From Trypanosoma brucei (lineage: Eukaryota): a stretch of DNA of 64,000 nt. Shown piece after piece: positions 5,918 through 64,000 of this stretch. The position numbers and the translations under genes are program-made. The stretch spans positions 3,008,001 through 3,072,000 of the forward strand of contig CH464491.1 of the NCBI GenBank assembly GCA_000002445.1, given 5' to 3'. The number at the start of each line of letters is the position of its first letter. The stretch's first letter is position 1. The notes beneath the pieces were generated by a model. That model searched no databases and had not been told where the DNA came from. It saw nothing but the letters and a program-made list of their open reading frames with translations.

Positions 5918-5930
5918 CCCCCCCCCCCCC
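5918..5930. repeat. C13 homopolymer in an intergenic region
   Basis: gctgatccccccccccccctacaacgg. Confidence 0.9.
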
Positions 5931-6632: not shown

Positions 6633-6748
6633 CTCTTTTCCTTTGCGTGATTGCTATTTTTCGTTTTGTCTCCCTTACTTACCTTCCTCTCTGTGGGTCC
6701 TGCGGCTGAGAGGGTGCTGCAAGCCGCTTTTTTTTTTCTTTACGACGC
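6633..6748 (+). promoter_or_regulatory. Polypyrimidine tract upstream of the 6752 ORF (candidate splice-acceptor region)
   Basis: ctcttttcctttgcgtgattgctatttttcgttttgtctcccttacttaccttcctctctgtgggtcc...cttttttttttctttacgacgcc. Confidence 0.4.
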
Positions 6749-6751
6749 CAA

Positions 6752-7600
6752 ATGCGTCGTTTCTGCACTGCTCGTGTAAGTAGTTATGTTAAGCGTGCGC
6801 CACTCCTGCTTCCCCGTGGTGGGCGGCGCTGGAGATCGGGGGCAGGAACCACTGCGGATGGCGGTGGGGAAAAAGAATACATAGCGGACTCTTTTGAATC
6901 CACTGCCGGTTCTAATGCGTATGCCGCGATGGAATTAGCTGCTGAGGCTCGGAGGGAGATTCACGAACTGTGGCTGTCGGCCGAAACAGCACTTGAGAGG
7001 GAGAAACGTGTTCAGCAGGTGGCGGCACTTATCGAAAAATACAAGTTAGACCCCTCTACACCGCGGGAGGCAGATGTGAGCCGGGGATTAGGTGATGCTT
7101 TTGATCGACTGCTCCTCTTGTGTCTGCCCCTTGGCAAAACAGACGCTAAAGGAACTGATAACTTGGAGCGACTTATGCACCTAGCTGGGAGGAATGGTAG
7201 GGAGCTTTCTGTGCGGACGATTCAACATTTGTTTGCTCGTACGGACTCATTCGCGGAAGCGCTCGCTGTTTTCTACACCATGCGGCGATGCCATGTGGCA
7301 ATGAATATGGAGGCTTATTATTCCATGCTTTACTCTTTGCAACGGCTCGAGGAGGAAGGGTGGGGGCAACACTTTCGCAACGAGTATGAGGAAAATGGAG
7401 CCCCTTCTGAGCAAGCGATGGACTTCATAGTGAAGGGCATCAGTAACGCTTTATTGCCGGAAAACAAGCCGTGGCTTGGTCGTGTGATGTTCCAGGACCG
7501 GAATGTGCCAGATCGAAGGTATGACACGCGTGACTTCGATGAGCTGGACACAGCATGGACACAACGCTATAAAAGTGGTACGCCTGCCGGTGCCCATTGA
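6752..7600 (+). CDS. Hypothetical protein with an N-terminus that looks like a mitochondrial presequence
   Basis: 282-aa ORF in the same orientation as its neighbours. The N-terminus MRRFCTARVSSYVKRAPLLLPRGGRRWRS is Arg-rich and amphipathic. No recognisable catalytic motif. Confidence 0.45.
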   Translation: MRRFCTARVSSYVKRAPLLLPRGGRRWRSGAGTTADGGGEKEYIADSFESTAGSNAYAAMELAAEARREIHELWLSAETALEREKRVQQVAALIEKYKLDPSTPREADVSRGLGDAFDRLLLLCLPLGKTDAKGTDNLERLMHLAGRNGRELSVRTIQHLFARTDSFAEALAVFYTMRRCHVAMNMEAYYSMLYSLQRLEEEGWGQHFRNEYEENGAPSEQAMDFIVKGISNALLPENKPWLGRVMFQDRNVPDRRYDTRDFDELDTAWTQRYKSGTPAGAH

Positions 7601-8002
7601 TTTCCGTTTGCCATAGGATGATTGAATTGGATGGAGCCGATAAGGCAGGGGAGGCACTTCGAGATTGTGGCGTTCAAATGTTTTATCGTGTGCTCGTCTG
7701 TGTAAGCGTTTCTGCACATAAGTATGACACTCAGTCAACGCATGCACACCCATTAATTTCATACGTCTGCGAGTAAACAACTTTTCTGTATGGGCCCGGG
7801 CCACCGCATATAGTTAAGTTACAAAAAACAAAAAGTAGTTCGAACTTTGTTGGATATGGCTGCGCTTCGCTCTCAACGTCTTCGCTGACATCGCCTCCCC
7901 GAACTTTGTTTGCATCTTTTCCCTTGTTTGCCCACTTTTGGAAATTACAGCGTAACCAAGCCTCCTGCTTAGTAGCAGCACAAAGCAAAAGGAAGTAGAC
8001 AA

Positions 8003-11815: not shown

Positions 11816-13875
11816 AATATCTTCCGTTCGTACTCTCGTGAATGTTGGGACACTTTCTCGTTTTATTTTTGCTTTTTCTACTTGCTTTATCCACACTTTC
11901 TTTCCATGGGTGGATATTCCTTTTTATTTTTGTGCGGTGGTCTAAAAAGATGCTGAGTGGGAAAAGTTGCTGTTATTACTGAAAGTATATGTTTATGTTG
12001 AAACAAAAAAAAAAGAGGCAACAATTAAAATGTCTCATTTTTTCCATGAAGGCCTCTTTTACGAGAAGAAAGGATATATAACTGGCGGTTGAGGTCGTGT
12101 GCCTCAACCCCGGACGGTTTCTGTTTTTTGTTTTTAATCCCTTTTTGGTCACCAACGTGATCATTGTATCTGCTCGTCGTTGGTGCCGTGGTGATAAAAG
12201 TACGTTTAGGTGATGCGAAGCACGATGTAGGGAAGATGTGGTGGTGGCTGCGCTTGTATATGGACGTTGGGTTGAGGTTTTGCCGAATATACATATTTTT
12301 TTTTTCTACCGTTGCCCCCCCCCTCCCCACCACTTCTGAAATATTGGGAAGGCGAAAGTGTGAAGTGTTTGAGAAGTGGAGGATTGTGCCATGGCAGGCT
12401 TGTAATTTTGCGGTAGCCACGGCAGGTGAGTTGCTGCTGTGGGCGTGGGCGTGGGCGTGTGTATGTTGCTCGTACAATTGTTCTCTTGTTATTTTACGTG
12501 AGAGCATCTGCAGAGCACTAGCTCACGTCCAACCTTCTTCACTCCATGTAATGCTTAAGTTTTAATTTCACTCCTTTTTCTTTGTCAAAACCTACCCTGT
12601 TTTCACACGTCTTTACGCATCTCTTCCTTCTTTTCGAATTCGGTGTAATTTGTCTGTGTTGCTGTTTTACCTTCTTTTGGGGAATAACTTCTCAAATAAC
12701 TAAACAGGGAAGGAGGAGACGACATGAGGAAAGAACTCTGCAGGGCAAATGTGTAGAATCTCTGTTATACGTACGCCAAAAGACTTGTTCGTACAGAGCC
12801 AGAGGGGGTGATGATAAATTTTCTTGAAGATAGAGGAGAGTTAATGCATTTTTCATCTCATCCCTTTCCTTTTTCATCCCTCGTTTTTCCTCCTATTTGA
12901 TGTTTTCCTCCGCGGTGTTTCCGTAGCCGAACATGTCGTGTGGTGTGTGAAGGGGTGCGATCCTTTTCCCCATCATCAACAATGAAACAAGAGGAATGTG
13001 AAAAAGATAGGTGAAAGAACAGAGAGGAAAAGGGTGAGAAAACTGTGAGGGGGGGCCGTTTGGGCCAAGCAGCCCGTCTCATCGTGCCTTTCATACCTAT
13101 CGAATGTGGTGGTGTACCCCCTATCTTTTCTGTTTCTGTAAGGGGAATCTGACGGTACCCCTCTCTCTCTCTGTATGTGTGTGTGTAATTTCCTTTTGCC
13201 CTGCTTCCTGAGCCACAGCGGCCTCGAGGTGTAACTGAGCGTGATGTCTCTGCCTTCCCCTAGGCGGGGTCGGATGTAACTTTATGTGGAGAAAGAGATA
13301 GCCGATCGACTGATTTTGAAAGAAAAGAAGCCTTACCTCCATGTCTCGGAATTAGGGATGTGCCTGTACACGTATCTATGTATTTAAATGTAGTTGTGTT
13401 TAACATGGAGGGAAGAAAAGGAGGGAACAATGAAAGGACAGCAGACGGTGAGGGTAATGTGACACAATGTGATTGTAGGCACTCACTTGTACGGTAAGTG
13501 GAAGTGTTAGGTAGCAGATACGGATAAACATTTGCTGCCGGAGGAAGCAGTTTGGGGTTGTGGTGACTTTTCTTCTTTCTTTCTATTTTTTCTCTATTTT
13601 GCTGTTGTGGTTGTCAATGAAAAATGGTAGGAGAAGGTGCCGCTGCGCGCACTTTTTTGTTTCTCTTGTTATTTGGCTTTCAGATTTTATACCATATCTG
13701 TACTCTCACTGCAGCGGTTGCCTGTATTCTGTTGCACACCCTGTGGCACAAAGTCGCCCAAAACAACGGGAAACATTGCTTTGTGCATGCTACGGACGGG
13801 TAAAGTTTCGATAATACCATTTCGTACCTCACTGTTCCGTAAGCTTCAGGCACAGCCACCAGGATATTTGACACC

Positions 13876-13912
13876 TATCATTTTTTTATATTTCTTTTTT
13901 TTTTCCAATTTC
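13876..13912 (+). promoter_or_regulatory. Polypyrimidine tract upstream of the GGCT-PGM fusion gene
   Basis: tttttttatatttctttttttttttccaatttc lies immediately 5' of the ATGs at 13928 and 13940. Confidence 0.4.
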
Positions 13913-13927
13913 AAAAGCGTCAACTTC

Positions 13928-16030
13928 ATGAGGAATGCGATGGCGGATGCGACGAGCAGCCACTTGGAAGGACCCACCACTCTTGTGTTTGTCTATGGTA
14001 CTCTCCAGCGTGGAGAGAACAACTACCCCTGGTGGTTGGCCAACCCACGGCATGCCGCCTTCATTACTGTGGCGATAACTAGGAGGCGGTATCCATTATT
14101 TGTCAACCTGCTTCCTGGGAGCAGTTCCTGTTCGCCCTGTTTACTCAACCTTCCGGAAGAAGGGGAGGAAGATTTTCCCGAAGGTAGTTTTGCAGGTGTT
14201 GATAGTGACGGTCGTGTGACGGCGCATCATGTCGTGGGTGAATTGTTTGCGGTCACGGAAACTATGAAACGGTGGCTTGATGTGCTGGAGGACGTGGAAA
14301 CAGGGTTATATAGCGTTGGTACCATAGATGTTGTTCCCCTCGGCAACGCGCAGTTTGTAGAGAGAGTACTGCTTGTCGGGGAGGGCGAGGCGATACGTGC
14401 GCTGGTTTACTTCCGTGAAAGGGATTATTCAGAGGACTGGAGGAGCCCTAGTCCCAAGTGCGGCTCGACGTTGTTGAGGCGATTTTCAGCATCGGAATGC
14501 GTGCGGATTTATGGTCACCGTTTCACTGGGTCGCCTGCCCACCTCCGGGGGGCGGTGGGGTTGAGGGAAGGCCTTGAGCGGATTGGTCACCGGAGTCCCA
14601 CAGCTACCCCCGTCAACCCGAAGCCCATCGTACTATTCATTATTGACGGGATTGGGGACGTCTCATATCCGGGGTTGGGTCATCGCACCCCTCTTGAGGT
14701 CGTCTCCGGTTGTCCCTCCCGTGGCGAGGGTAGTGGCGGCACTGGTCAAGGCGACGATGAAACATTCGATAAATTTGTAGCCCCTGGAATCAATGTGGTG
14801 ACACGACATGGTGTCAGTGGTGTCATGGATGTTTTTGAAGCTGGTGTCACTTGCGGCAGCGATACGGCACACTTGTCAATTTTCGGCTATCCCCCCCAGC
14901 AGTATTACAGGGGTCGCGGAGCATATGAAGCCTTGGGAGCGGGGTTGCACCTCGATGAGGGTGATATCGCCTTCAAATGTAATTTTTCTGTTTTAGATGA
15001 GAAGACAGGCATCGTGCTGAAGCGGCGCTGCGATCGCGACTTCACACGTGAGGGACCAATTCTTTGCGAGTTCCTTGACGGTCTGGTCGTTGAAGTCGAG
15101 CCCGAACACGAGATAGGCGAAGTGAAGACCCACACGCTGAAGGTGCGCTACGCGACAGAGCACCGCTGCGGTGTGGCCATCACTGGTAACGGCCTCTCAC
15201 ATAAGATCACAGGGACAGATCCTCTCGCTGATGATCGTCCGCTGCTTCACTGCAAACCGACTGTGTCACCTGGCCACGAGGAGTACGAGGCGGCACTTTA
15301 CACTAGCCGTGTTGTCAATGCGGCATCGGAGCGTGTGAACGAGTTACTGCGGTGCCACCCAATTAACGAAACCCGGCGCGTAGAAGGGAAACAAGTTGCA
15401 AATATTGTTCTTTTCCGCGGTGCCTCAAACAAGGGATGGGTTCCACCGTTTACGGTACGCCATGGACTTAACGGCTTCATCGTGAGTCCCACATGCATCA
15501 TAAAAGGATTAGGCATCTGTTGTGGACTAAGCTCCGTGGATGCGGAGGGGGCTACTGGCGATTGGGACACAAATGTCAACGCCAAAGTGGATGCCGTACT
15601 AAAGGAACTGGGAGTTGCGAATTTGTTGGAGAAAGGTAGCGGTGATAATACCGAAGAAATCACTGCATCTCCATACAATTTTGCTGTGCTCCATGTGAAG
15701 GGTGTCGATGACGCTGGGCATGAGTGCAGTTTAACGCACAAATTGGTGATGCTGAAGAAGTGTGGTGATGCCATGCAGCGGTTGTGGGATGCCCTTCCGA
15801 CCGGAAGCACAATGGTAGTGTTGGCAGACCATTCCACACCAATTTCGCTAGGGGACCACAGCTGTGAACCGGTGCCCGTTTCTCTGGCAACTAAGGGGTC
15901 TGAAATCACGGATGGTGTGCAGTTCTATAGCGAGGTCGAATGTGTTGCAGGAGCTCTCGGACGGTTCCGCGGTGAGGTTCTAATGGACGTTGTCAAGCGT
16001 GCGCACCATTGGTATCACTACCGCCAGTAA
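13928..16030 (+). CDS. Fusion protein: an N-terminal gamma-glutamyl cyclotransferase (AIG2/GGACT-like) domain and a C-terminal archaeal-type 2,3-bisphosphoglycerate-independent phosphoglycerate mutase (apgM) domain of the alkaline-phosphatase-like metalloenzyme superfamily. The listed ORF starts at 13637.
   Basis: The N-terminus has LVFVYGTLQRGENNYPWW and the GELF...LDVLEDVETGLYSV pattern of the AIG2/GGACT fold. The C-terminal half has apgM-like motifs: PIVLFIIDGIGD, GHRTPLEVV, APGINVV, GSDTAHLSIFGYPP, RGRGAYEALGAGL, DIAFKCNF, LHVKGVDDAGHE and VLADHSTPISLGDHSCEPVP. The ORF stretch upstream of 13928 is pyrimidine tract. Confidence 0.75.
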   Translation: MRNAMADATSSHLEGPTTLVFVYGTLQRGENNYPWWLANPRHAAFITVAITRRRYPLFVNLLPGSSSCSPCLLNLPEEGEEDFPEGSFAGVDSDGRVTAHHVVGELFAVTETMKRWLDVLEDVETGLYSVGTIDVVPLGNAQFVERVLLVGEGEAIRALVYFRERDYSEDWRSPSPKCGSTLLRRFSASECVRIYGHRFTGSPAHLRGAVGLREGLERIGHRSPTATPVNPKPIVLFIIDGIGDVSYPGLGHRTPLEVVSGCPSRGEGSGGTGQGDDETFDKFVAPGINVVTRHGVSGVMDVFEAGVTCGSDTAHLSIFGYPPQQYYRGRGAYEALGAGLHLDEGDIAFKCNFSVLDEKTGIVLKRRCDRDFTREGPILCEFLDGLVVEVEPEHEIGEVKTHTLKVRYATEHRCGVAITGNGLSHKITGTDPLADDRPLLHCKPTVSPGHEEYEAALYTSRVVNAASERVNELLRCHPINETRRVEGKQVANIVLFRGASNKGWVPPFTVRHGLNGFIVSPTCIIKGLGICCGLSSVDAEGATGDWDTNVNAKVDAVLKELGVANLLEKGSGDNTEEITASPYNFAVLHVKGVDDAGHECSLTHKLVMLKKCGDAMQRLWDALPTGSTMVVLADHSTPISLGDHSCEPVPVSLATKGSEITDGVQFYSEVECVAGALGRFRGEVLMDVVKRAHHWYHYRQ

Positions 16031-36697: not shown

Positions 36698-37948
36698 TTG
36701 AGCACGATGACTGAAATGCTGAGCTGTTTGGTGCCGTACCTTGATAAGCACTTGGTACTTGGCCTCCTCTATTTTTACGATGATCAGGGTGTCGATGTGG
36801 GTGATGCCCTCCGATTCGTGCAGGCGACCACGGCGCTGACGCCGGAGGGTGAAGTGTCCCTCGAGCAGGAGAACAAAATTCGTGAGACCGCCGAGCGCGC
36901 TCGCCCAGCACTTGACATGTTTTTTGAGCAGAACGTTTCGGACAACTGCACATACCAGTTGTGCCTCACGGAGAGTCGGATTGACGAATTGCGAGGTAAA
37001 GGAGAGTTGTCTCGTGGTTTCCTTGAGAAGGAGGGTATTACCCCCAAGGTTATGACCGCCGTGATGGATTTGGCCTTTTTGTACTACGACGCGGCGCGGT
37101 ACGGGGACGCATCTGAACTACTTTCCTTGTTACAGTGTGTTACGGGATACGAGCTTGGCGAAAGCAAGTTACTATGGGGAAGGCTGGTGTGTGATACGTG
37201 CTCATGCAGATGGCCGTCTGCGATCGCGGCAGCGGAGAAACTGTGGAAACAGCAAGGTGCAGACGGGTCAGAGAACAAGTCAGGAAAGACAACACTCCGC
37301 GGCGACAATGGAACCTCCGTAACGGAGCGAGTGTGGTTGTTGCATTGGGCTCTCTTCCCGTTCTTCAAGGGTGGTAACCAGTACTCCACACATCTGTTGA
37401 ACATTGTCTTTGACAACAAGACGGATTCCATATACCAGTGTGTTGTAGAGACGGTGTGCCCACACTATCTGCGCTACATCTGCGCGGCTGCTATTCTCAA
37501 CACACACCGTCGCTCCGCCCTTCGTAGAGCTGCCGAGATGGTGGGAAGAATTTATGAATATTCCGACCCGCTCACGCAACTTGTGAGGGAAATCACGAAT
37601 TACCGCTCCTTCGAGGACACCCTTGAGCTACTGCCGAAGGTAAGCGAGCTGGCACAAGGTGACTATTTCCTCAATCTGCACGCTGATAATTTGGTCGAGA
37701 ACGCGAAGCGGCTTATTTTCACCCAGTATGTGGTAACCCACAGTGTAGTGTCAATACCATACATGGCGGAAAGGCTAGAAATGAGTGCGGCAGGGGCCGA
37801 GGTGTGGCTAGCTGATCTCATCAGCGAGACAAAGCAGCGTGCAAAGATCGATGCCGTAACAGGTCAAATGTTTGTTGGCTCGCAGGTTCGTTCCGTCCAT
37901 CAAACGGTGCTTGACAGGTTGGAGCCGGTTGACCACGGTCGGCGCTGA
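36698..37948 (+). CDS. EIF3E: Translation initiation factor eIF3 subunit E (INT6-like, PCI domain)
   Basis: The N-terminus LVPYLDKHLVLGLLYFYDDQG matches the eIF3e N-terminal signature (compare DRHLVFPLLEFL). The C-terminal PCI/winged-helix region has IFTQYVVTHSVVSIPYMAERLEMS. The 416-aa length is appropriate. Confidence 0.7.
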   Translation: MSTMTEMLSCLVPYLDKHLVLGLLYFYDDQGVDVGDALRFVQATTALTPEGEVSLEQENKIRETAERARPALDMFFEQNVSDNCTYQLCLTESRIDELRGKGELSRGFLEKEGITPKVMTAVMDLAFLYYDAARYGDASELLSLLQCVTGYELGESKLLWGRLVCDTCSCRWPSAIAAAEKLWKQQGADGSENKSGKTTLRGDNGTSVTERVWLLHWALFPFFKGGNQYSTHLLNIVFDNKTDSIYQCVVETVCPHYLRYICAAAILNTHRRSALRRAAEMVGRIYEYSDPLTQLVREITNYRSFEDTLELLPKVSELAQGDYFLNLHADNLVENAKRLIFTQYVVTHSVVSIPYMAERLEMSAAGAEVWLADLISETKQRAKIDAVTGQMFVGSQVRSVHQTVLDRLEPVDHGRR

Positions 37949-38854
37949 TAGAATGGAAAAAGTAGGGGAGCCATGAAGCCGCGTTCAGTGAAGGTTGCGC
38001 GCCGAGGCTACGGTGAGATCGATTCGTGTGCTTGAGGTTTTTCCTTCCGCAAGCAGCGCAAAGGATTATGAGCAGTGGGGGATCGAATATTGTTCGTTCA
38101 GTAATAAAGCGTGAAAGGGAAGGAGGGTGCGAGTGTGTGGAGAATGCGAAAATGGGCATGGGATTATTGAATGGGATATTACGAGTTACCGTCACGTAAA
38201 CGGACATGAGGTGTAAGTGGTGTAGCTTTATACATTGTTGGGGTCCCCCTTTTTAATGTGTTTCTGCATTTCCTACATTTTGGGTGCGTGGGGCTCAGTC
38301 CCATTGGAAACGCAGTTTTGTGGTGAGGATGTTGTTGTTGTGGAGCGCTGCTCCCTTTTGTAAGAACGACACAAGGCTGGTTGTCACTTTCTCCACTGTT
38401 AGGATAGTTGCCTTACTTTCATTTCGGACGGCCTCTTTCGTTAACTTCCCTCTTTCAAGCAATCCTTACACGTATGTTCAAATTCCACCGTTAGCGGGAG
38501 AAGAGTAAGGAAAAAGTTACTTTTTAAATACTCACACATCCAAATAAGAGGGTGAGGTTTTGCATTTGTGTGTTTGCGCGTAAGTGTATGTGCCCACTGG
38601 CATGCAAATGATAGGCCTCCTCCCTGGGGTATGAGGTGCGGGGGATGGAAATGTTTTCTCTGGAGCTGCGACCTCGTCCATGTAGTTTTCTCTCATTTCC
38701 TTCCTAACGGTCTTATCTCCTCCAAAAGGCAAGCGTAAGTTGCCGAGGGGCTCATATTAGATTAGTGACCAATATACTTGTGTCCAAGTTTAGACCTATA
38801 GGAAGTCCTCGCGGGTAACGGGACGCACTGAATAGGTGAACACCACAAAATAAG

Positions 38855-41800
38855 ATGCTTTCAGTTTACAAACCGCGCTTTCTTACGGGAGAAAAGGGAC
38901 GTGGAGACGGACGGGGAGGAAAACACGGAAGGCAAACTTTACTGGGTCCACCGTCCCGGGGAGCCGTATGGCCAGCAGTTGCAGGAGGGGGAGCATGGCC
39001 CATAGCTGCACCGGTGCACCTCAGCCCACTTCCTGTGCCGGTGGCAACGTCGCATTGGGCGCTCTCCGGCTGTCGATTGCCGGCTACCATTCCGACAGGG
39101 AAGCGTTTGATTGGGTCCTGTGTCAATGAGATGAGCAACCTCAACGATTCTGAGAAAGCGATATGTGAGCTCATGGTTGGCTTTTTGGAGCACAAATCTG
39201 CAACTGAGGCCGAGTGTATCATGTCGGAGGTGGACGAAATGGTTTGTTCCCGTCGCTTGCTCTCACAGTACAGTGGTGTGTACGCTAGTAAATGCCCCGG
39301 TGACGCAAATGGAGGGAAAGACGAACCGTTGCGTGGAAAAACTCAGCTTATTCGCTTCCTTCGGCAGCAGCAAGAGGAAAAGGAGGAGCGGGAGAAGAAC
39401 TGGGAGCAGAGGCGGCGCCAGCGCATCGCCAGGGAAGCAGCGGAGAGAAGAGAATCACGAGAGAGGTGGAAGAAAATGTTTCTGCACAACGTAGAGGGAA
39501 AAAGCAAAAGGGAAGCCCTTCCAAAAACAGCTAAGAGAAAGGCACAAATTGGAAGGTGTATCGACAAAGAAGCTGCCAATATAAAACACAAACAACGACG
39601 GTGTGAAGACGAGGACTTTAGATTAACATCTCTAAGCGATTCCACTTTCACTGACTCTTTATGCGGCTACCCACAACATGTGCCGAACGTGGCAAGGCCC
39701 ATCAGAGTGCCAGCTGCAACCGAGCGATTCGCTAATGCAAGCGAAAAACTCACTAGGGAGGTGGCAGGTGCGCAATATATACGAGTCCCAAGGGAAATGC
39801 CGACAAGCATACGCGTCGCTTCTTCTGACAGCGAGAATACGGAAGATATTATCGAAAAAACAGATAAGTTGGTGGGGGACAGGTTAGAGGTGTTCAAACA
39901 ACGGCAAAACACAAACGACACGAGATCCAAAGAATCATTTATTGCAGCAATTCAGAAAAGTTATAGCGCACAGGGTGATGAAAGACCACTCACGACAACA
40001 GAAAACCAGCAGCAAATGACAAAAAAAGATAATCAACTGAGAAGCACAGAAGTGGAGAAAAAAACCCAGGACCCAACATCAATTACAGCTACCATCCGAT
40101 ACACCAAACAGGAGGATGACATCAAAAATAAACAAAACGCCATTTCAGAAAGAGGACTCAGTACATCAACGAACCAAAAACAAACAGAAACATTAATTAC
40201 TTCTAACAATCAACATTCAGTTGATGAGCGCCACCAATCAGACGATCGACAGCACTCCAAACGTTCTGAATCCAAGAAGGAGTTGCAGGAATCATTGCAT
40301 TCCAACAAGTCTGCAGTGAAGGATGGTGAACCTGAACTTGAGGCTTCTCAAGGTTCGAAGAAGTCACAGCGGTCCCGTGAGTCTATTCGTGAGGGTTTTG
40401 CTGATGATTTGCAATCACAGGGTTCTCAACATTCTAAACGTTCTGAATCCAAGAAGGAGTTGCAGGAATCACTACATTCCAACAAGTCTGCAGTGAAGGA
40501 TGGTGAACCTGAACTTGAGGCTTCTCAAGGTTCGAAGAAGTCACAGCGGTCCCGTGAGTCTATTCGTGAAGGTCTTGCTGATGATTTGCAATCACAGGGT
40601 TCTCAACATTCTAAACGTTCTGAATCCAAGAAGGAGTTGCAGGAATCACTACATTCCAACAAGTCTGCAGTGAAGGATGGTGAACCTGAACTTGAGGCTT
40701 CTCAAGGTTCGAAGAAGTCACAGCGGTCCCGTGAGTCTATTCGTGAGGGTTTTGTTGATGATTTGCAATCACAGGGTTCTCAACATTCTAAACGTTCTGA
40801 ATCCAAGAAGGAGTTGCAGGAATCACTACATTCCAACAAGTCTGCAGTGAAGGATGGTGAACCTGAACTTGAGGCTTCTCAAGGTTCGAAGAAGTCACAG
40901 CGGTCCCGTGAGTCTATTCGTGAAGGTCTTGCTGATGATTTGCAATCACAGGGTTCTCAACATTCTAAACGTTCTGAATCCAAGAAGGAGTTGCAGGAAT
41001 CACTACATTCCAACAAGTCTGCAGTGAAGGATGGTGAACCTGAACTTGAGGCTTCTCAAGGTTCGAAGAAGTCACAGCGGTCCCGTGAGTCTATTCGTGA
41101 GGGTTTTGCTGATGATTTGCAATCACAGGGTTCTCAACATTCTAAACGTTCTGAATCCAAGAAGGAGTTGCAGGAATCACTACATTCCAACAAGTCTGCA
41201 GTGAAGGATGGTGAACCTGAACTTGAGGCTTCTCAAGGTTCGAAGAAGTCACAGCGGTCCCGTGAGTCTATTCGTGAGGGTCTTGCTGATGATTTGCAAT
41301 CACAGGGTTCTCAACATTCTAAACGTTCTGAATCCAAGAAGGAGTTGCAGGAATCACTACATTCCAACAAGTCTGCAGTGAAGGATGGTGAACCTGAACT
41401 TGAGGCTTCTCAAGGTTCGAAGAAGTCACAGCGGTCCCGTGAGTCTATTCGTGAGGGTTTTGTTGATGATTTGCAATCACAGGGTTCTCAACATTCTAAA
41501 CGTTCTGAATCCAAGAAGGAGTTGCAGGAATCATTGCATTCCAACAAGTCTGCAGTGAAGGATGGTGAACCTGAACTTGAGGCTTCTCAAGGTTCGAAGA
41601 AGTCACAGCGGTCCCGTGAGTCTATTCGTGAGGGTTTTGTTGATGATTTGCAATCACAGGGTTCTCAACATTCTAAACGTTCTGAATCCAAGAAGGAGTT
41701 GCAGGAATCATTGCATTCCAACAAGTCTGCAGTGAAGGATGGTGAACCTGAACTTGAGGCTTCTCAAGGTTCGAAGAAGTCACAGCGGTCCCGTGAGTCT

Positions 41801-44800
41801 ATTCGTGAGGGTTTTGTTGATGATTTGCAATCACAGGGTTCTCAACATTCTAAACGTTCTGAATCCAAGAAGGAGTTGCAGGAATCACTACATTCCAACA
41901 AGTCTGCAGTGAAGGATGGTGAACCTGAACTTGAGGCTTCTCAAGGTTCGAAGAAGTCACAGCGGTCCCGTGAGTCTATTCGTGAGGGTTTTGTTGATGA
42001 TTTGCAATCACAGGGTTCTCAACATTCTAAACGTTCTGAATCCAAGAAGGAGTTGCAGGAATCATTGCATTCCAACAAGTCTGCAGTGAAGGATGGTGAA
42101 CCTGAACTTGAGGCTTCTCAAGGTTCGAAGAAGTCACAGCGGTCCCGTGAGTCTATTCGTGAGGGTTTTGTTGATGATTTGCAATCACAGGGTTCTCAAC
42201 ATTCTAAACGTTCTGAATCCAAGAAGGAGTTGCAGGAATCATTGCATTCCAACAAGTCTGCAGTGAAGGATGGTGAACCTGAACTTGAGGCTTCTCAAGG
42301 TTCGAAGAAGTCACAGCGGTCCCGTGAGTCTATTCGTGAGGGTTTTGTTGATGATTTGCAATCACAGGGTTCTCAACATTCTAAACGTTCTGAATCCAAG
42401 AAGGAGTTGCAGGAATCACTACATTCCAACAAGTCTGCAGTGAAGGATGGTGAACCTGAACTTGAGGCTTCTCAAGGTTCGAAGAAGTCACAGCGGTCCC
42501 GTGAGTCTATTCGTGAAGGTCTTGCTGATGATTTGCAATCACAGGGTTCTCAACATTCTAAACGTTCTGAATCCAAGAAGGAGTTGCAGGAATCATTGCA
42601 TTCCAACAAGTCTGCAGTGAAGGATGGTGAACCTGAACTTGAGGCTTCTCAAGGTTCGAAGAAGTCACAGCGGTCCCGTGAGTCTATTCGTGAGGGTTTT
42701 GTTGATGATTTGCAATCACAGGGTTCTCAACATTCTAAACGTTCTGAATCCAAGAAGGAGTTGCAGGAATCACTACATTCCAACAAGTCTGCAGTGAAGG
42801 ATGGTGAACCTGAACTTGAGGCTTCTCAAGGTTCGAAGAAGTCACAGCGGTCCCGTGAGTCTATTCGTGAGGGTTTTGTTGATGATTTGCAATCACAGGG
42901 TTCTCAACATTCTAAACGTTCTGAATCCAAGAAGGAGTTGCAGGAATCATTGCATTCCAACAAGTCTGCAGTGAAGGATGGTGAACCTGAACTTGAGGCT
43001 TCTCAAGGTTCGAAGAAGTCACAGCGGTCCCGTGAGTCTATTCGTGAGGGTTTTGTTGATGATTTGCAATCACAGGGTTCTCAACATTCTAAACGTTCTG
43101 AATCCAAGAAGGAGTTGCAGGAATCACTACATTCCAACAAGTCTGCAGTGAAGGATGGTGAACCTGAACTTGAGGCTTCTCAAGGTTCGAAGAAGTCACA
43201 GCGGTCCCGTGAGTCTATTCGTGAGGGTTTTGTTGATGATTTGCAATCACAGGGTTCTCAACATTCTAAACGTTCTGAATCCAAGAAGGAGTTGCAGGAA
43301 TCACTACATTCCAACAAGTCTGCAGTGAAGGATGGTGAACCTGAACTTGAGGCTTCTCAAGGTTCGAAGAAGTCACAGCGGTCCCGTGAGTCTATTCGTG
43401 AAGGTCTTGCTGATGATTTGCAATCACAGGGTTCTCAACATTCTAAACGTTCTGAATCCAAGAAGGAGTTGCAGGAATCACTACATTCCAACAAGTCTGC
43501 AGTGAAGGATGGTGAACCTGAACTTGAGGCTTCTCAAGGTTCGAAGAAGTCACAGCGGTCCCGTGAGTCTATTCGTGAGGGTTTTGTTGATGATTTGCAA
43601 TCACAGGGTTCTCAACATTCTAAACGTTCTGAATCCAAGAAGGAGTTGCAGGAATCATTGCATTCCAACAAGTCTGCAGTGAAGGATGGTGAACCTGAAC
43701 TTGAGGCTTCTCAAGGTTCGAAGAAGTCACAGCGGTCCCGTGAGTCTATTCGTGAGGGTTTTGTTGATGATTTGCAATCACAGGGTTCTCAACATTCTAA
43801 ACGTTCTGAATCCAAGAAGGAGTTGCAGGAATCACTACATTCCAACAAGTCTGCAGTGAAGGATGGTGAACCTGAACTTGAGGCTTCTCAAGGTTCGAAG
43901 AAGTCACAGCGGTCCCGTGAGTCTATTCGTGAAGGTCTTGCTGATGATTTGCAATCACAGGGTTCTCAACATTCTAAACGTTCTGAATCCAAGAAGGAGT
44001 TGCAGGAATCACTACATTCCAACAAGTCTGCAGTGAAGGATGGTGAACCTGAACTTGAGGCTTCTCAAGGTTCGAAGAAGTCACAGCGGTCCCGTGAGTC
44101 TATTCGTGAGGGTTTTGTTGATGATTTGCAATCACAGGGTTCTCAACATTCTAAACGTTCTGAATCCAAGAAGGAGTTGCAGGAATCATTGCATTCCAAC
44201 AAGTCTGCAGTGAAGGATGGTGAACCTGAACTTGAGGCTTCTCAAGGTTCGAAGAAGTCACAGCGGTCCCGTGAGTCTATTCGTGAGGGTTTTGTTGATG
44301 ATTTGCAATCACAGGGTTCTCAACATTCTAAACGTTCTGAATCCAAGAAGGAGTTGCAGGAATCATTGCATTCCAACAAGTCTGCAGTGAAGGATGGTGA
44401 ACCTGAACTTGAGGCTTCTCAAGGTTCGAAGAAGTCACAGCGGTCCCGTGAGTCTATTCGTGAGGGTTTTGTTGATGATTTGCAATCACAGGGTTCTCAA
44501 CATTCTAAACGTTCTGAGTCCAAGAAGGAGTTGCAGGAATCACTACATTCCAACAAGTCTGCAGTGATGACTAATGGCTTCTCTGTTGATGTTAGGAATT
44601 CTGGTGGTTGTCGACAGGAAAAGAACTTTTCGGATTGTGTTGGACCGTTGTTTTCCTCGAGGTCGCATTTGTCTGTTCACATGGATACACGTGGTGATGT
44701 TGATGTTTCTCCTCCTTTTCATGATATTTCTAGTGCTGGTGCTGGTGCTGAAGCTCCGCTGTCAATGGGACAGTCTGTTTCTTCTTTAGATGCTTTACCG

Positions 44801-44833
44801 ATGCCGGAGTTTGTTGGGCCGCTTAAAGGTTAA
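38855..44833 (+). CDS. Large repeat protein of 1992 aa. It has a unique basic/acidic N-terminal region of ~460 aa, then 24 tandem 59-aa repeats, then a unique C-terminal ~90 aa. An alternative start is at 39131 (MSNLNDSEKA).
   Basis: Uninterrupted ORF through the repeat array. The unit is QSQGSQHSKRSESKKELQESLHSNKSAVKDGEPELEASQGSKKSQRSRESIREGF(A/V)DDL. Confidence 0.75.
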   Translation: MLSVYKPRFLTGEKGRGDGRGGKHGRQTLLGPPSRGAVWPAVAGGGAWPIAAPVHLSPLPVPVATSHWALSGCRLPATIPTGKRLIGSCVNEMSNLNDSEKAICELMVGFLEHKSATEAECIMSEVDEMVCSRRLLSQYSGVYASKCPGDANGGKDEPLRGKTQLIRFLRQQQEEKEEREKNWEQRRRQRIAREAAERRESRERWKKMFLHNVEGKSKREALPKTAKRKAQIGRCIDKEAANIKHKQRRCEDEDFRLTSLSDSTFTDSLCGYPQHVPNVARPIRVPAATERFANASEKLTREVAGAQYIRVPREMPTSIRVASSDSENTEDIIEKTDKLVGDRLEVFKQRQNTNDTRSKESFIAAIQKSYSAQGDERPLTTTENQQQMTKKDNQLRSTEVEKKTQDPTSITATIRYTKQEDDIKNKQNAISERGLSTSTNQKQTETLITSNNQHSVDERHQSDDRQHSKRSESKKELQESLHSNKSAVKDGEPELEASQGSKKSQRSRESIREGFADDLQSQGSQHSKRSESKKELQESLHSNKSAVKDGEPELEASQGSKKSQRSRESIREGLADDLQSQGSQHSKRSESKKELQESLHSNKSAVKDGEPELEASQGSKKSQRSRESIREGFVDDLQSQGSQHSKRSESKKELQESLHSNKSAVKDGEPELEASQGSKKSQRSRESIREGLADDLQSQGSQHSKRSESKKELQESLHSNKSAVKDGEPELEASQGSKKSQRSRESIREGFADDLQSQGSQHSKRSESKKELQESLHSNKSAVKDGEPELEASQGSKKSQRSRESIREGLADDLQSQGSQHSKRSESKKELQESLHSNKSAVKDGEPELEASQGSKKSQRSRESIREGFVDDLQSQGSQHSKRSESKKELQESLHSNKSAVKDGEPELEASQGSKKSQRSRESIREGFVDDLQSQGSQHSKRSESKKELQESLHSNKSAVKDGEPELEASQGSKKSQRSRESIREGFVDDLQSQGSQHSKRSESKKELQESLHSNKSAVKDGEPELEASQGSKKSQRSRESIREGFVDDLQSQGSQHSKRSESKKELQESLHSNKSAVKDGEPELEASQGSKKSQRSRESIREGFVDDLQSQGSQHSKRSESKKELQESLHSNKSAVKDGEPELEASQGSKKSQRSRESIREGFVDDLQSQGSQHSKRSESKKELQESLHSNKSAVKDGEPELEASQGSKKSQRSRESIREGLADDLQSQGSQHSKRSESKKELQESLHSNKSAVKDGEPELEASQGSKKSQRSRESIREGFVDDLQSQGSQHSKRSESKKELQESLHSNKSAVKDGEPELEASQGSKKSQRSRESIREGFVDDLQSQGSQHSKRSESKKELQESLHSNKSAVKDGEPELEASQGSKKSQRSRESIREGFVDDLQSQGSQHSKRSESKKELQESLHSNKSAVKDGEPELEASQGSKKSQRSRESIREGFVDDLQSQGSQHSKRSESKKELQESLHSNKSAVKDGEPELEASQGSKKSQRSRESIREGLADDLQSQGSQHSKRSESKKELQESLHSNKSAVKDGEPELEASQGSKKSQRSRESIREGFVDDLQSQGSQHSKRSESKKELQESLHSNKSAVKDGEPELEASQGSKKSQRSRESIREGFVDDLQSQGSQHSKRSESKKELQESLHSNKSAVKDGEPELEASQGSKKSQRSRESIREGLADDLQSQGSQHSKRSESKKELQESLHSNKSAVKDGEPELEASQGSKKSQRSRESIREGFVDDLQSQGSQHSKRSESKKELQESLHSNKSAVKDGEPELEASQGSKKSQRSRESIREGFVDDLQSQGSQHSKRSESKKELQESLHSNKSAVKDGEPELEASQGSKKSQRSRESIREGFVDDLQSQGSQHSKRSESKKELQESLHSNKSAVMTNGFSVDVRNSGGCRQEKNFSDCVGPLFSSRSHLSVHMDTRGDVDVSPPFHDISSAGAGAEAPLSMGQSVSSLDALPMPEFVGPLKG
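40253..44567 (+). repeat. Perfect-to-near-perfect tandem array of 24.4 units of 177 bp (59 codons, in frame), inside the CDS
   Basis: The anchors cactccaaacgttctgaatccaagaagg at 40253 and cattctaaacgttctgaatccaagaagg at 40430 give a period of 177. The few variant sites (ttt/ctt, gct/gtt, cta/ttg) define three unit subtypes. Confidence 0.95.
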
Positions 44834-45163
44834 ATTTTTTGTCGTTTAATTTTTTCTCTGTCCCTAAAATTCTAACAATTTTTATATACGTTGTGTTGCT
44901 ATAATATTAGTCTGCTTGTTGTTGTTCCTTTATTATTTGATTGAGAAATATTTCGTTGAGTTTATTTTGATTATATGTGGATCTGTTTCAACGGGATTGT
45001 TTGCTTTTGTTGTGTTTATACTTTCCCCCTGTTGTTATCGTTTCTTTGTCCGATTTATTATACAATATAAAGTTGCTTAGTTCTCTTTAATATTCACTTA
45101 CCTTTCCTGCTACGTATGTATTTTCCTTTTTGTGATATGTAAGTTATGTCTATGCACTACGTG

Positions 45164-45647: not shown

Positions 45648-47366
45648 ATGTTTAAACGCACCCGAGGTGAAGATGAAGTAGTTGAGGTGTACGCAACTCT
45701 ACTACGGCAGAGTGGGGCTCGTGCCATTGAGCGTATACGTCAGCGACGTGGCAGCGGTACCAACAGCGTCATGCCGATTGATGCCCTCGTCATTCGTTAC
45801 GCTATGTGGTTTCTTGATACGTCCGCGTTCCCCGCTGTCAGTTATGTAACGCAAGCGCAGCGGGTCGTGACGGAGGCGATTGAGCGCGTTTCGTACCCAC
45901 AACATTTCAGTTTTATTCCACTTTCGACGCTTGTGGAATGTCTTGTGTCAGAGAACACAGCAGAGGTTATGCAACAGACAGTCGTCTCCATTGAAGAATT
46001 TATTGATGCTCGAGATGCGTTGGGAAGGTGGATTGACGAAAATATTGGTAACGCAGGCGGGGAACGGTACGAACGATACAACCATTACAGCGGCGGCGAA
46101 AAAGATGAAGAGGCTGAGATTGCTCTTGAGCGGGCGGGCATACTGTGGCGCAGTGCGTTGTACTGGGTGGCGGTATTTGAATACATTGAGGCCCTCTCGC
46201 TCAGCAGTGCTAAGGTAAATGTCTTCGCATTACGACCCAGGTATGAACAGGAGTTAATGAATCTGCTCAACTCTATTGCAGCACCCAAAGACTCGGTGTA
46301 CTGGAAACGGCAACAGGGTGTGAATGCCCCTACCGACAATCTTTCGATGCTGCCATTAAGCGCGAGTGCCACTACCCGTGACGGTGGCGAAATAGCTGAT
46401 AGCTCAACCGAAGGAGAGGACACGGAGAGGATGCAAGCAGACGGCGGTGACAACACTTCGTCTCGTGCAACAGAGCCGACTACGGCAACAAAGGAGGCGG
46501 ATCCTAATGAGGTTGGTAGTGACGCCACTGATGGGATTGGCAAGCTTTTGGTCGATCTTATAGCACTTGTGAACTGTCCTTCTGAGACCCCTGGGTCTGG
46601 TACTAGAATAAACCCAATGTTTTACACCATGGTTCATGCACGGCTGAATGTTATTGCGGCCTGTGAACGCCTTAACCGCTTTGGTAGCTCTGCGCGTGTC
46701 GCTCCCCCGCCGCTCACCGCGTCATTGCAGTCGCTTCAATCTCAGCGTGAGGCTCTCAATGCTGGTCGGCATCGGCGTGATGCTCACTTAGAAACCAGTG
46801 GGGAAATTGGACTTCCGTTGGATTTTGTGCCAAGTGAGGCGTACCTGCGGGCGGCACTGGAGAGGGAAAATATCACGCTTGAGGAGGACGAGGAGCTTTT
46901 CAAGGATGAGATTGTAGACTACTATAAGCGTCAGCAACAGCATCAACATGCCCCACCACGCGATAGGAGTGGCCCAAAGGAGCCCACCGTCTTGATGAAA
47001 CCGCATCGTTTCTGCAAGGTGAAGACAGGCTACACATGGACTCAGTACAATCGCACGCATTATGATGTACGCTCGAATCCCCCACCCCGAAGTGTGCTGT
47101 GGTATGAGTTTACCCTTTTTTACCCGGCACTCGCTAGCACGAAACGCGACATGAGCCGAATCTACCACATTGAAGACACATCCAGAGGATCCAAGGATGA
47201 TTACTGTGTGTTGGTGTTCTCAGTGGGGCCACCGTATGCGGATGTGGCCTATCAAATTGTTCGAAAGCAGTGGGACCCACGCCCGGGAGGGGTTCGCGCA
47301 AGTTTTGACAGCAGCGGTACTTATCGGCTTTTCTTCCGCTTTACCAACAGCAATTATCGACGGTAG
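45648..47366 (+). CDS. Cactin homolog (spliceosome-associated protein). Only the conserved C-terminal domain is recognisable.
   Basis: The C-terminus FCKVKTGYTWTQYNRTHYDVRSNPPPRSVLWYEFTLFYPAL matches the cactin C-terminal signature (KTGYEWNKYNQTHYD..NPPPK.VQGYKFNIFYPDL). Confidence 0.7.
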   Translation: MFKRTRGEDEVVEVYATLLRQSGARAIERIRQRRGSGTNSVMPIDALVIRYAMWFLDTSAFPAVSYVTQAQRVVTEAIERVSYPQHFSFIPLSTLVECLVSENTAEVMQQTVVSIEEFIDARDALGRWIDENIGNAGGERYERYNHYSGGEKDEEAEIALERAGILWRSALYWVAVFEYIEALSLSSAKVNVFALRPRYEQELMNLLNSIAAPKDSVYWKRQQGVNAPTDNLSMLPLSASATTRDGGEIADSSTEGEDTERMQADGGDNTSSRATEPTTATKEADPNEVGSDATDGIGKLLVDLIALVNCPSETPGSGTRINPMFYTMVHARLNVIAACERLNRFGSSARVAPPPLTASLQSLQSQREALNAGRHRRDAHLETSGEIGLPLDFVPSEAYLRAALERENITLEEDEELFKDEIVDYYKRQQQHQHAPPRDRSGPKEPTVLMKPHRFCKVKTGYTWTQYNRTHYDVRSNPPPRSVLWYEFTLFYPALASTKRDMSRIYHIEDTSRGSKDDYCVLVFSVGPPYADVAYQIVRKQWDPRPGGVRASFDSSGTYRLFFRFTNSNYRR

Positions 47367-60856: not shown

Positions 60857-62008
60857 ATGCTCCGTCGTTTGGCCACTCATGGACTCCAAGCTACGTGCCT
60901 GACTTCGGAGAAGTTGGCGTACCGCTACTGCCTCAGCATTTGTGTCCCCACTATTGCCGAGTCCATCAGCAGTGGGAAGGTTGTGGGATGGACTAAGAAG
61001 GTTGGTGACGCTGTTGCCGAAGATGAGATTATTTGTCAAATTGAGTCGGACAAACTCAATGTGGATGTACGCGCCCCTGCCGCGGGTGTGATCACGAAGA
61101 TAAACTTCGAAGAGGGCACTGTTGTCGATGTTGGCGCCGAGCTTTCAACCATGAAGGAAGGTGAGGCCCCCGCCGCCAAGGCCGAAACAGCCGACAAACC
61201 GAAGCAGAATGCACCGGCGGCGGCAGCACCTCCCAAAGCTTCCCCAACTGAAGCCGCGCCAAAGCCAGCGCCCGCGGCTGCTCCCGTCACCTCACGTGGG
61301 GCGGACCCGCGCGTACGTAGCGTTCGCATCTCCTCCATGCGGCAGCGCATTGCGGATCGGCTGAAGGCAAGCCAGAACACGTGTGCCATGCTCACGACAT
61401 TCAACGAGATTGATATGACCCCTCTTATCGAGTTGCGCAATCGTTACAAGGATGATTTCTTCAAGAAGAACGGGGTGAAACTTGGATTCATGTCGCCATT
61501 CGTGAAGGCCTGTGCTATTGCACTTCAGGACGTTCCTATTGTCAACGCATCCTTCGGCACTGACTGCATCGAATACCACGACTACGTGGACATCAGTGTT
61601 GCCGTATCCACACCGAAAGGTCTTGTTGTGCCGGTCCTTCGTGACGTGCAGAACTCCAACTTTGCCCAAATTGAAAAGCAAATCGCAGACTTTGGTGAGC
61701 GCGCCCGCTCGAACAAGCTGACCATGGCGGAGATGACCGGTGGCACATTCACTATTAGCAACGGCGGCGTGTTTGGCTCGTGGATGGGGACACCTATCGT
61801 CAACCCACCACAGAGCGCTATTCTTGGTATGCACGCCACGAAGAAGAAGCCGTGGGTTGTGGGCAACTCCGTCGTCCCGCGTGACATAATGGCGGTTGCC
61901 CTCACGTACGATCACCGTCTCATCGACGGCAGTGACGCCGTAACATTTCTCGTTAAGGTGAAGAACCTCATTGAGGATCCCGCACGTATTGTGCTCGACC
62001 TCGCCTAA
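60857..62008 (+). CDS. Dihydrolipoamide succinyltransferase, the E2 component of 2-oxoglutarate dehydrogenase. The ORF opens at 60833; a mitochondrial presequence follows the ATG at 60857.
   Basis: - Single lipoyl domain with lipoyl-lysine in IESDKLNVDV.
- Ala/Pro-rich linker.
- 2-oxoacid dehydrogenase acyltransferase catalytic domain: ISNGGVFGSWMGTPIVNPPQSAILGMHA ... YDHRLIDGSDA. Confidence 0.85.
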   Translation: MLRRLATHGLQATCLTSEKLAYRYCLSICVPTIAESISSGKVVGWTKKVGDAVAEDEIICQIESDKLNVDVRAPAAGVITKINFEEGTVVDVGAELSTMKEGEAPAAKAETADKPKQNAPAAAAPPKASPTEAAPKPAPAAAPVTSRGADPRVRSVRISSMRQRIADRLKASQNTCAMLTTFNEIDMTPLIELRNRYKDDFFKKNGVKLGFMSPFVKACAIALQDVPIVNASFGTDCIEYHDYVDISVAVSTPKGLVVPVLRDVQNSNFAQIEKQIADFGERARSNKLTMAEMTGGTFTISNGGVFGSWMGTPIVNPPQSAILGMHATKKKPWVVGNSVVPRDIMAVALTYDHRLIDGSDAVTFLVKVKNLIEDPARIVLDLA

Positions 62009-64000
62009 ATTGACGCACTTTGTTTGGATAAGGTAAATAAGCAAAGGCATTTTCTTCTCCCCCCCCTATTGTTGTTGTTACTAATATGAATGGGGCGGTG
62101 GCGGTGGCGGGAGGAATTAAGGGGTATAAACTCAAGTGCGTGCACACGCCGGTGTGTCTGCAATGGAAGAGGAGAGAAAATAAATAAAATGAAATCAGAA
62201 GAATGATCACTGACACTCGTGAAGGTGATGTGTGTTTCAACATCGAGTGACCCAACGAACTATTTTATTTGTTGTTTTATTTTTCCCCGATACGATAGCG
62301 GTTTCTTATTTTAGTTTTACTTTACTTCAAATTCTTACTCTCTCTCTCTGTGGGTGTGTGTGTTTTTTACGAATGAGCGAATAGGGAGGAGGAGGAGGCG
62401 GGTGAAAGTTAGTGTAAGCAAGCAACAGCAAGAAAGAAATTTGGTTACACGGAGAACAACAGCACCAAAATAAAGACGTAACGATACTTTAAAAAAAAAA
62501 GAAAGGGAAGAAATTATTTAATTCCGATCGGGGGAAAAGAGGGAGGGAGGGAGGGGAGGGGGTGACAAGGTTAAGTAAGGGTGTAGCAGCACTTTATTTG
62601 TTGTGTATGTTTTAATATTCACATGAGCGCAAACGACGGGATATGTAGCAATTTTCTTTGAATAATAAAAAAAAAAGAGTGACCGCCATTTCCTCCTCCT
62701 CCTCCTGCCGCATCAATGAACGGATACGGGATGGGATATACGGTTTTTATTTATTTATTTTTTGGAGTACCTTTTTTTCTTTTTTCTTTGGTTTCTTTTT
62801 CCATCCTAAATATATATATATATATTTTTTGTATCGCTGGTGTTTCTTTCATCTGTTATCACTTCCCTCACCCACGACCCTCTGTTTCTTTTTTTTTGGT
62901 CCTTTCCGTGTCTGCAGCTGGGAACGAAAAGTAAAAAAACAAAACAAAAAGAAAGAAAGAAAGAGGAATGGATTGCGATGAACCGAAGGCTGCGGAGGAG
63001 TTGGGGCGGGTAGTGGAATGCGATTGGTAAAAGAAGATAATAAAATAAAAAAAAGAAAATATGAAACAAAACGAAGAAATGGAGAAAAATGCGGAATGAT
63101 GACTGCGGGGGTGGGGGCGCGTGCGTTCGTATGAGTTTCGTAACAGAACGAACTGAAAAACTAAGCAGAAAAAAGGAGGAGTAAATCAAAATGAGGAAGA
63201 AAAAAAATAATAACGCAGGATGGGGGGGGGGTGCAATGGGAAGGGGAAGAGTTTGACGCTGTGGAAGAAGAGGATCTCTTTTTCTTATTTTACGCCTTTG
63301 TTTTTTTTTCTTTTTTATCTTTCCGATTTTGTTACCTATCTCTTTTCAGTTTTTATTTCAGTTCACGTTTGGTTTTCCCCTTTGTTTATTTTTTTATTTT
63401 TTTCGTCTCGTGCGTCAAGCTGTGGTGGATTACCCGTCTGCTCGTTTTTATCCATTTTCCTTCCTCTTTTGCGTTTTCAGTGTTTCTGTTTCTGTTTTTT
63501 TTGTTTTTTTTCTCTTCGTGTTTTCCTCCTATTCCTCAATTACACGTGTTATCACTTCTTTACATGAAATTATTTCGTTTTTCTTTTCTCATTTTTTAAA
63601 AATCTTATTTCGGTGTGTTATTGTTTCGTTCTCCCTCTGTTATTTTCCTGTACATAACACTTGAAAAGACAAGTCACAGCGTGAAGGGGAGCAAAGAGCG
63701 AATTCAAGGGGGAAACTGAAACTTAAAAAAAAAGACAAAGAAAAGAAAAGGGAGAGGTGGCGAAGGTTGGGTAATATAAGGCGTTCGTTCCCACCTTTGA
63801 TGAGATAAGTTCACTTCCTCCTCAACATATTCCATTTTTCTGCGGATGCCAGTACATGACTCATTTCCTTTCTTTTTTACTTTAATTCCCACTTCTTGTG
63901 CCATATGTCATGATGTAACTTTGTTTCACCTGCGTGTCACCCTTTAAAATACATAAATAGGTTTACCCACATAAATAAGAGATACGCACCAAATGGGCGG

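Follow-up and report, generated by a model that had tools for sequence, protein, structure and literature searches.

The window analyzed here, 64,000 nucleotides of Trypanosoma brucei (assembly GCA_000002445.1, contig CH464491.1, positions 3,008,001 to 3,072,000 of the forward strand), is part of chromosome 11 of T. brucei brucei TREU927 and contains a complete open reading frame (ORF) on the + strand with a long internal array of 177-bp repeats. An earlier examination of the letters alone (hereafter the sequence-only reading) had assigned the DNA to a kinetoplastid and had described 24 in-frame repeats of 177 bp inside a 6-kb ORF with unique N- and C-terminal flanks, and on all these points it was borne out. 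The ORF runs from 38855 to 44833 (5979 nt, 1992 aa) and is the only one in the ORF list that spans the array; its unique flanks measure 466 aa on the N-terminal and 88 aa on the C-terminal side. A molecular mass of 221 kDa and an isoelectric point (pI) of 8.6 were computed from the translation. By position, the host gene is Tb927.11.11600, because it is flanked by Tb927.11.11590, which encodes eIF3e (PMC4320536), and by Tb927.11.11610 (also Tb11.01.3480), which encodes cactin (PMC8682746; Tb927.11.11610 is also found in the TrypTag supplement). Exact look-up of the full host protein, read from M1 or from M93, returned no record; by accession order the entry would be EAN80111 / Q383C0.

The N-terminal extension (aa 1-92; 38855-39130, + strand) was delimited by alignment with four orthologues, and the conserved domain that follows (aa 93-215; 39131-39499, +) by HMMER, alignment and AlphaFold2. 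A charged low-complexity linker (aa 216-466; 39500-40252, +), which aligns poorly with the orthologues, leads into the 24 full 177-bp units (40253-44500, +; Tandem Repeats Finder and unit-by-unit comparison) and a partial 25th unit of 22 codons (44501-44567, +; consensus match). The translation ends with a unique C-terminal tail of 88 aa (pI 5.0) and the stop codon (44568-44833, +). The long gene model with M1 rather than M93 as the start codon is favored by the sequence, because the extreme N-terminus MLSVYKPRFLTGEKGR (M-x5-PR..TGE(K/R)) resembles the MPxCRxPRRPxxxGxRR of the orthologues in the alignment and because M1 is the first ATG downstream of a polypyrimidine tract and an AG at about 38640-38725 (sequence read by eye). 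The T. b. gambiense orthologue CBH18182.1 has a start identical to M1 of the TREU927 ORF.

Tandem Repeats Finder reported a single array at 40259-44567 with a period of 177, 24.3 copies, 98% matches, 0% indels and a score of 8338. When the units are set in the register of the reading frame they begin at 40253, and 24 of 24 spacings are exactly 59 codons. Over its 67 nt the partial 25th unit departs from the consensus at a single site, a private change at unit position 17, before unique sequence starts at 44568. Within the TREU927 array, 7 of the 177 columns are variable, two of them in unit 1 only. Individual units differ from the consensus by 0-5 nt (mean 1.7, about 99% identity; 7 units are equal to it), pairs of units differ by a mean of 2.38 nt and 6 unit haplotypes are found; the sequence-only reading, which had given about 3 nt per unit, was therefore right in the order of magnitude and slightly high in the value. 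The unit encodes HSKRSESKKELQESLHSNKSAVKDGEPELEASQGSKKSQRSRESIREG(F/L)(V/A)DDLQSQGSQ, with F/L at residue 48 and V/A at residue 49, of which the V/A site had been recognized correctly and the F/L polymorphism overlooked. Among the six reading frames of the unit only frame +0 is free of stops, and the GC content of the array is about 45%. As in the trypanosomatid tandem-repeat antigens, near-identical units lie in frame within a protein-coding gene. No degenerate units were detected upstream: the four 177-nt blocks before the array, compared with the consensus in register, showed 45-51 identities out of 177, which is about random.

The locus was fetched from T. b. gambiense DAL972, T. b. equiperdum IVM-t1 and two T. 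equiperdum OVI contigs with the invariant neighbors as handles, and per-unit variant tables were drawn up for three arrays (TREU927, DAL972 and IVM-t1). These contain 24, 16 and 24 full units, respectively, each with an additional partial unit. The array is kept nearly uniform by concerted evolution, because alleles missing from the other two arrays have reached high frequency, no unit haplotypes are shared with TREU927 and distances are smaller within than between arrays. The synonymous allele 42C is present in 14/24 TREU927 units and the likewise synonymous allele 140G in 19/24, and both are found in 0/16 units of DAL972 and 0/24 units of IVM-t1; conversely, allele 130A occurs in 5/24 IVM-t1 units and in neither the TREU927 nor the DAL972 array. 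Not a single unit haplotype is common to TREU927 and DAL972 or IVM-t1, and the mean within-array distances of 2.38, 1.66 and 2.0 compare with TREU927-to-other distances of 3.08-3.15. The ongoing homogenization postulated in the sequence-only reading is thereby supported. The process behind it would be unequal sister-chromatid or allelic exchange together with gene conversion between misaligned units.

Unit 1 (40253-40429, +) is the only unit with variants 2C and 5C, which it carries in all three arrays; it is an edge unit that escapes homogenization, which is the expected and classic pattern. In each of the three arrays, both F/L (nt position 144) and V/A (nt position 148) are polymorphic from unit to unit. 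The order of the units differs in character between the arrays. In TREU927, no higher-order periodicity at lags 1-8 and no block duplication were found, in DAL972 identical neighbors are clustered (P=0.03), and in IVM-t1 units 7-12 match units 13-18, i.e. a block of 6 units (1062 bp) is duplicated (lag-6 match 9/18, P=0.0004; region 5672-7794 of the fetched locus). The duplication is either a real multi-unit unequal exchange or an artifact of the (hybrid) assembly. Indels are absent from the TREU927 and DAL972 arrays. Taken over the three arrays, the variable columns comprise 6 synonymous and 6 nonsynonymous changes vs an expectation of about 1:3, and this synonymous excess is a weak sign of purifying selection or coding constraint.

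Relatives of the gene were searched with HMMER (phmmer) using aa 93-525 (the unique N-terminal region plus one unit) as a query against 1.84 billion representative proteins. Five proteins matched, all of them orthologues. The best match was CBH18182.1 of T. b. gambiense DAL972 (1520 aa, 95% identical, 17 matched stretches), which contains 16 full repeats and a partial one. The other four are hypothetical proteins that lack the array: KEG08337.1 of T. grayi (500 aa), KAH9600252.1 of T. melophagium (550 aa), EKF38367.1 of T. cruzi marinkellei (436 aa) and ESL09257.1 of T. rangeli (436 aa). They share 36-49% identity with the T. brucei protein over an N-terminal domain of about 120 aa (phmmer E 6.6e-20 to 6.2e-8). 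The order eIF3e-orthologue-cactin was checked in two of these four species, T. melophagium and T. c. marinkellei, and is present in both. The non-brucei proteins thus resemble the T. brucei protein in the slot between eIF3e and cactin (as far as checked) and in the helical N-terminal domain, and differ from it in their length of 436-550 aa and in having no 59-aa array; in the T. melophagium gene no long-period repeat of any kind was found. The 59-aa unit had no match among the 1.84 billion representatives outside the Trypanozoon genomes examined, which leaves the unit an orphan, detected only in these genomes. None of the T. congolense proteins in the collection matched, which is only suggestive, as the library consists of annotated proteins and an unannotated or collapsed orthologue of T. 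congolense or T. vivax would be invisible to the scan. A word-indexed protein search (queried with the N-terminus plus 2 units, the N-terminus alone, or the five-species domain alignment) returned zero matches despite the presence of CBH18182.1 in the collection, which is a limit of the tool and not an absence of relatives. Judged by these comparisons, the gene is older than the array, which the T. brucei lineage probably acquired within a conserved trypanosome gene. Derivation of the unit from an ancestral C-terminal segment was considered as well and rejected: alignments to the C-terminal halves of the four orthologues were no better than shuffled ones (z -1.3 to -0.1).

The trypanosome-specific domain shared by the orthologues (SEKAICELMVGFLEHKS...SRRLLSQYSGVYA...TQLIRFL...RWKKMF in T. 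brucei, aa 93-215) has 28 invariant columns across five species, and the pattern SICxLM..L.HK..EA..I..EV....RRLL..YSGVY ... LIR.L is present in the T. brucei protein. AlphaFold2 modeled the domain with a predicted local distance difference test score (pLDDT) of 75 and with helices H6-21, H24-47 and H66-119, i.e. as a predicted helical hairpin with a long charged helix (about 55 residues) behind it. The domain had no match in Pfam, only weak coiled-coil matches to MITF/TFE3 (E >= 0.02) among the PDB sequences, and nothing with E < 3 among the PDB folds (Foldseek).

The sequences immediately next to the array differ more between strains than the surrounding DNA. In about 19 kb of compared sequence, about 0.4% of the sites distinguish TREU927 from DAL972 and IVM-t1. 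In the 300 bp bordering the array on either side (39953-40252 and 44568-44867), 16 single-nucleotide polymorphisms (SNPs) vs 2.4 expected were counted against DAL972 (Poisson P about 1e-8) and 14 vs 2.5 expected against IVM-t1 (Poisson P about 4e-7), the two comparisons not being independent, as DAL972 and IVM-t1 have a haplotype in common. The SNP density in the flanks is about 6x the background, which is regained within about 500 bp. The flank haplotype of IVM-t1 is DAL972-like and that of OVI is TREU927-like. Between TREU927 and IVM-t1, the linker (aa 216-466) carries 7 nonsynonymous and 3 synonymous differences, with the SNP-dense part in its last 300 bp or so, and the N-terminal extension (aa 1-92) carries 0 nonsynonymous and 1 synonymous difference; the C-terminal tail is SNP-dense in the comparisons with both DAL972 and IVM-t1. 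Overall, the flanking protein regions evolve fast, with a ratio of nonsynonymous to synonymous polymorphism (pN/pS) of about 0.5. The excess of SNPs could reflect relaxed constraint on low-complexity coding sequence, recombination-associated mutagenesis or old haplotypes. A further-reaching proposal would be that the T. brucei group acquired the array recently, as an innovation on a conserved trypanosome-specific protein, and that the array is at the same time a recombination hotspot that raises the mutation rate of its own flanks. We consider this combination rather unlikely; if true, mutagenesis driven by repeats and protein function that depends on length could be studied at this locus as a natural system in a parasite, and the locus might also offer a serodiagnostic target specific to Trypanozoon.

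Each unit contains 11 basic, 11 acidic and 13 Ser residues, giving a pI of about 7; 37% of the residues are charged and 76% are disorder-promoting, with a net charge of 0 and a charge-mixing index (kappa) of about 0.2. Strong, well-mixed polyampholytes are established to form expanded flexible chains. An AlphaFold2 model of the flank plus four units, calculated from a single sequence and of low confidence (pLDDT 58, predicted template modeling score 0.18), shows one helix of about 43 residues and a linker of about 16 residues per unit, and no globular repeat fold; a globular repeat domain is unlikely. Neither a signal peptide nor a membrane anchor was found in the host translation, therefore the host protein is probably intracellular, and the unique parts of the protein contain no Pfam domain. 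Through the array, the protein gains about 1400 residues of a Ser/Gln-rich polyampholyte that is neutral overall but highly charged and would probably behave as an extended flexible chain or as a string of marginal helices. The most likely role of the array would be that of a spacer of variable length, or of a multivalent scaffold, keeping the conserved N-terminal domain at a distance from the short C-terminal tail; any antigenicity would be a by-product.

Taken together, we consider it probable that the repeats represent a genuine coding minisatellite in an older gene, which evolves in concert and probably acts as a flexible spacer or scaffold. Several points weigh against this interpretation. 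The spacer or scaffold role is purely inferred and the structure prediction behind it comes from a single sequence and has low confidence. A status specific to Trypanozoon is not proven with a library of annotated proteins only. Allele 42C is also present in the single T. equiperdum OVI unit recovered, therefore it is the mark of a haplotype group rather than of TREU927 by itself. Finally, the unit counts are vulnerable: the count of 24 and the unit order in TREU927 rest on a Sanger-era assembly, the 24 units of IVM-t1 include the 6-unit duplication, which could be a misassembly, and the gene contains 1-bp indels, and the 16 units of DAL972 could be the result of a collapse.

The sequence-only reading had seen in the composition of the unit a mark of immunodominant repetitive antigens or cytoskeleton-associated repeat proteins, a view supported neither way by a unit of net charge 0 with no homology to any other protein. 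The array might act as an immunodominant B-cell antigen of the trypanosomatid tandem-repeat type, or be of note chiefly for that reason; its multivalent identical epitopes would then drive strong antibody responses. The many identical, hydrophilic and charged units are features of this class and GM6 provides a precedent (PMC3808341), but no known antigen among the 1.84 billion representatives is homologous to the unit, the host protein lacks a signal peptide and a membrane anchor, and the searchable literature contains no serology, expression or localization report for the gene or the peptide. We therefore see this as possible rather than probable; it is compatible with a concertedly evolving minisatellite and does not exclude it. 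Binding of the repeats to microtubules or to the flagellum attachment zone, as in cytoskeleton- or flagellum-associated repeat proteins of the MARP, GM6 or FAZ1 type, is a weaker candidate. A size of 221 kDa, a long repeat region, the predicted long helix in the conserved domain and the precedents in T. brucei (PMC3808341) would be in line with such a role. However, the unit is similar to no other repeat protein, with only the five orthologues found by HMMER and nothing in Pfam, and the orthologues function without an array. Microtubule-binding repeats are usually basic, in contrast to the unit with its net charge of 0 and pI of about 7. We consider this assignment unlikely. By comparison, a selectively neutral expansion by slippage and unequal exchange in a disordered part of a fast-evolving protein, with no function of its own, deserves somewhat more weight, although we do not favor it. 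It is in agreement with the absence of the array from 4/4 non-brucei orthologues, an apparently variable copy number, the pN/pS of about 0.5 in the flanking protein and the orphan character of the unit. The intact frame over 4.3 kb without indels in two assemblies and the over-representation of synonymous changes among variable columns speak against neutrality, but both arguments are weak, because homogenization itself removes indels and the counts are small. The period of 177 bp is also that of the minichromosomal repeats of T. brucei mentioned in PMC11739655, which raises the question of a kinship with this satellite. The TBR1 primer, which represents 20 nt of the satellite, was not matched anywhere in the window at <=3 mismatches. 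Moreover, the 177-bp satellite is AT-rich and non-coding, whereas the array has about 45% GC and is coding, in one frame only. We regard the kinship as extremely improbable and rejected it: the period alone coincides.

It could finally be argued that the number of 24 units or the order of their variants is an artifact of assembly and that the real length of the TREU927 array departs substantially from it in either direction. Units of about 99% identity offer only 6 haplotypes to anchor reads, and the array is a trouble spot for assembly, as the sequence-only reading had anticipated. The short-read OVI assembly breaks at both edges: of the contigs CZPT02001543.1 and CZPT02001856.1, one stops 140 nt into unit 1 and the other starts 28 nt before the last partial unit, therefore the gene is split and absent from the OVI protein set. 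A variation of copy number, which the sequence-only reading had held probable between strains, was seen among the assemblies (24, 24 and 16), although an assembly error may lie behind any of the three counts, and the 16 full units of DAL972 come from a model flagged as low quality and could be a collapse. Only DAL972 has a 1-bp deletion at the window-equivalent position 39896. In CBH18182.1, about 46 aa are read in another frame, and the protein then resumes the frame although the DNA has no second indel; the annotated coding sequence measures 4562 nt, whereas 1521 codons would need one nt more. The pattern suggests a sequencing error that was mended in the annotation, and the flag 'LOW QUALITY PROTEIN' on the RefSeq copy fits the patched frame. 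Against an artifact stands IVM-t1, which was assembled de novo from PacBio RS II and MiSeq data, TREU927 having been used only for chromosome construction and annotation (PMC6395869). This independent hybrid assembly likewise contains 24 full units and a partial one, and its count is independent of the reference because the order of the unit variants differs from that in TREU927. The absence of a block duplication from the TREU927 array also speaks for the reference. We therefore consider a substantially wrong TREU927 count improbable. The IVM-t1 gene itself has two 1-bp deletions within the array and at least one further frame-disrupting indel in the C-terminal tail, where two indel columns are found (window-equivalent 44691 and 44771), and no gene is called at this locus because the 1-bp indels disrupt the frame. 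The annotated length of the host gene is unreliable across assemblies, given the frame-shifted patch in gambiense, the missing gene call in IVM-t1 and the broken contigs in OVI.

Among known systems, GM6 (ClpGM6, Tb11.57.0008) is the closest in kind to the 59-aa array, being a very large T. brucei protein encoded on chromosome 11 with dozens of near-identical in-frame repeats of about 60-70 aa. The GM6 repeat measures 68 aa, with copy numbers of 60 (T. b. brucei), 11 (T. vivax) and 9 (T. congolense); GM6 associates with the flagellum attachment zone and is used as a diagnostic antigen (PMC3808341). In contrast to the GM6 repeat, which is conserved across African trypanosomes within a member of the calpain superfamily, the 59-aa unit lacks relatives that could be detected beyond Trypanozoon, and Pfam recognizes no domain in the unique parts of its host. 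The tandem-repeat B-cell antigens of trypanosomatids, such as the T. cruzi and Leishmania tandem-repeat proteins for which Goto et al. are cited in PMC3808341, offer a second parallel with a long array of identical hydrophilic units in an otherwise unremarkable intracellular protein, but that class is defined by seroreactivity and not by homology. With concertedly evolving coding minisatellites it shares the higher similarity within arrays than between strains, the spread of variants, the escape of the edge unit, the apparently differing copy number and the block duplication; it shows nothing unusual in this respect and is a textbook example.

Large coding repeat arrays are already well known in trypanosomatids, and the present one is an ordinary example that changes no picture, i.e. 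it is a previously unstudied case of a well-known type of feature. Its value lies in being a clean and quantifiable case of concerted evolution in T. brucei, to which mutagenesis of the flanks may perhaps be added; if expressed, the orphan unit confined to the brucei group would be a candidate group-specific antigen. A literature search returned no mention of Tb927.11.11600, Tb11.01.3470, the protein accessions or the unit peptide. In the parts searched of the TrypTag, nuclear proteome, differentiation proteome and cell-cycle phosphoproteome supplements (partial tables), the host gene is not listed, whereas several of them list Tb927.11.11610.

The immediate neighbors of the host gene are eIF3e upstream (36698-37948, +), recognized by its PCI domain in Pfam, and cactin downstream (45648-47366, +), identified by exact protein look-up as EAN80112. 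The order eIF3e / host gene / cactin in one direction of transcription is the same in the window, DAL972, T. melophagium and T. c. marinkellei. Six neighboring proteins of the window are exact matches to TREU927 entries from a contig of 5.26 Mb, MCM6 corresponding to EAN80115 and a PEX11-like glycosomal membrane protein to EAN80105, and the ATOM69 ORF is an exact match to a DAL972 entry that clusters with EAN80099 of TREU927. All real-looking ORFs of at least 200 aa lie on the + strand, in the manner of the polycistronic units of kinetoplastids.

A second coding tandem repeat is located at 10168-11396 (315 bp x 3.9 copies, 78% matches, 4% indels) in an ORF of 658 aa without a Pfam match (9839-11815, +). 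This region has the strongest GC and AT skews of the window (both 0.295), and the three long antisense ORFs over the repeat are probably compositional artifacts. An ORF of 797 aa at 13637-16030 (+) carries an AIG2/GGACT-like domain (gamma-glutamyl cyclotransferase family) at its N-terminus together with a domain of the cofactor-independent phosphoglycerate-mutase/metalloenzyme type, a pairing that looks unusual. At the end of the window (62001-64000) the GC content drops to 0.386, vs 0.44-0.54 in the rest.

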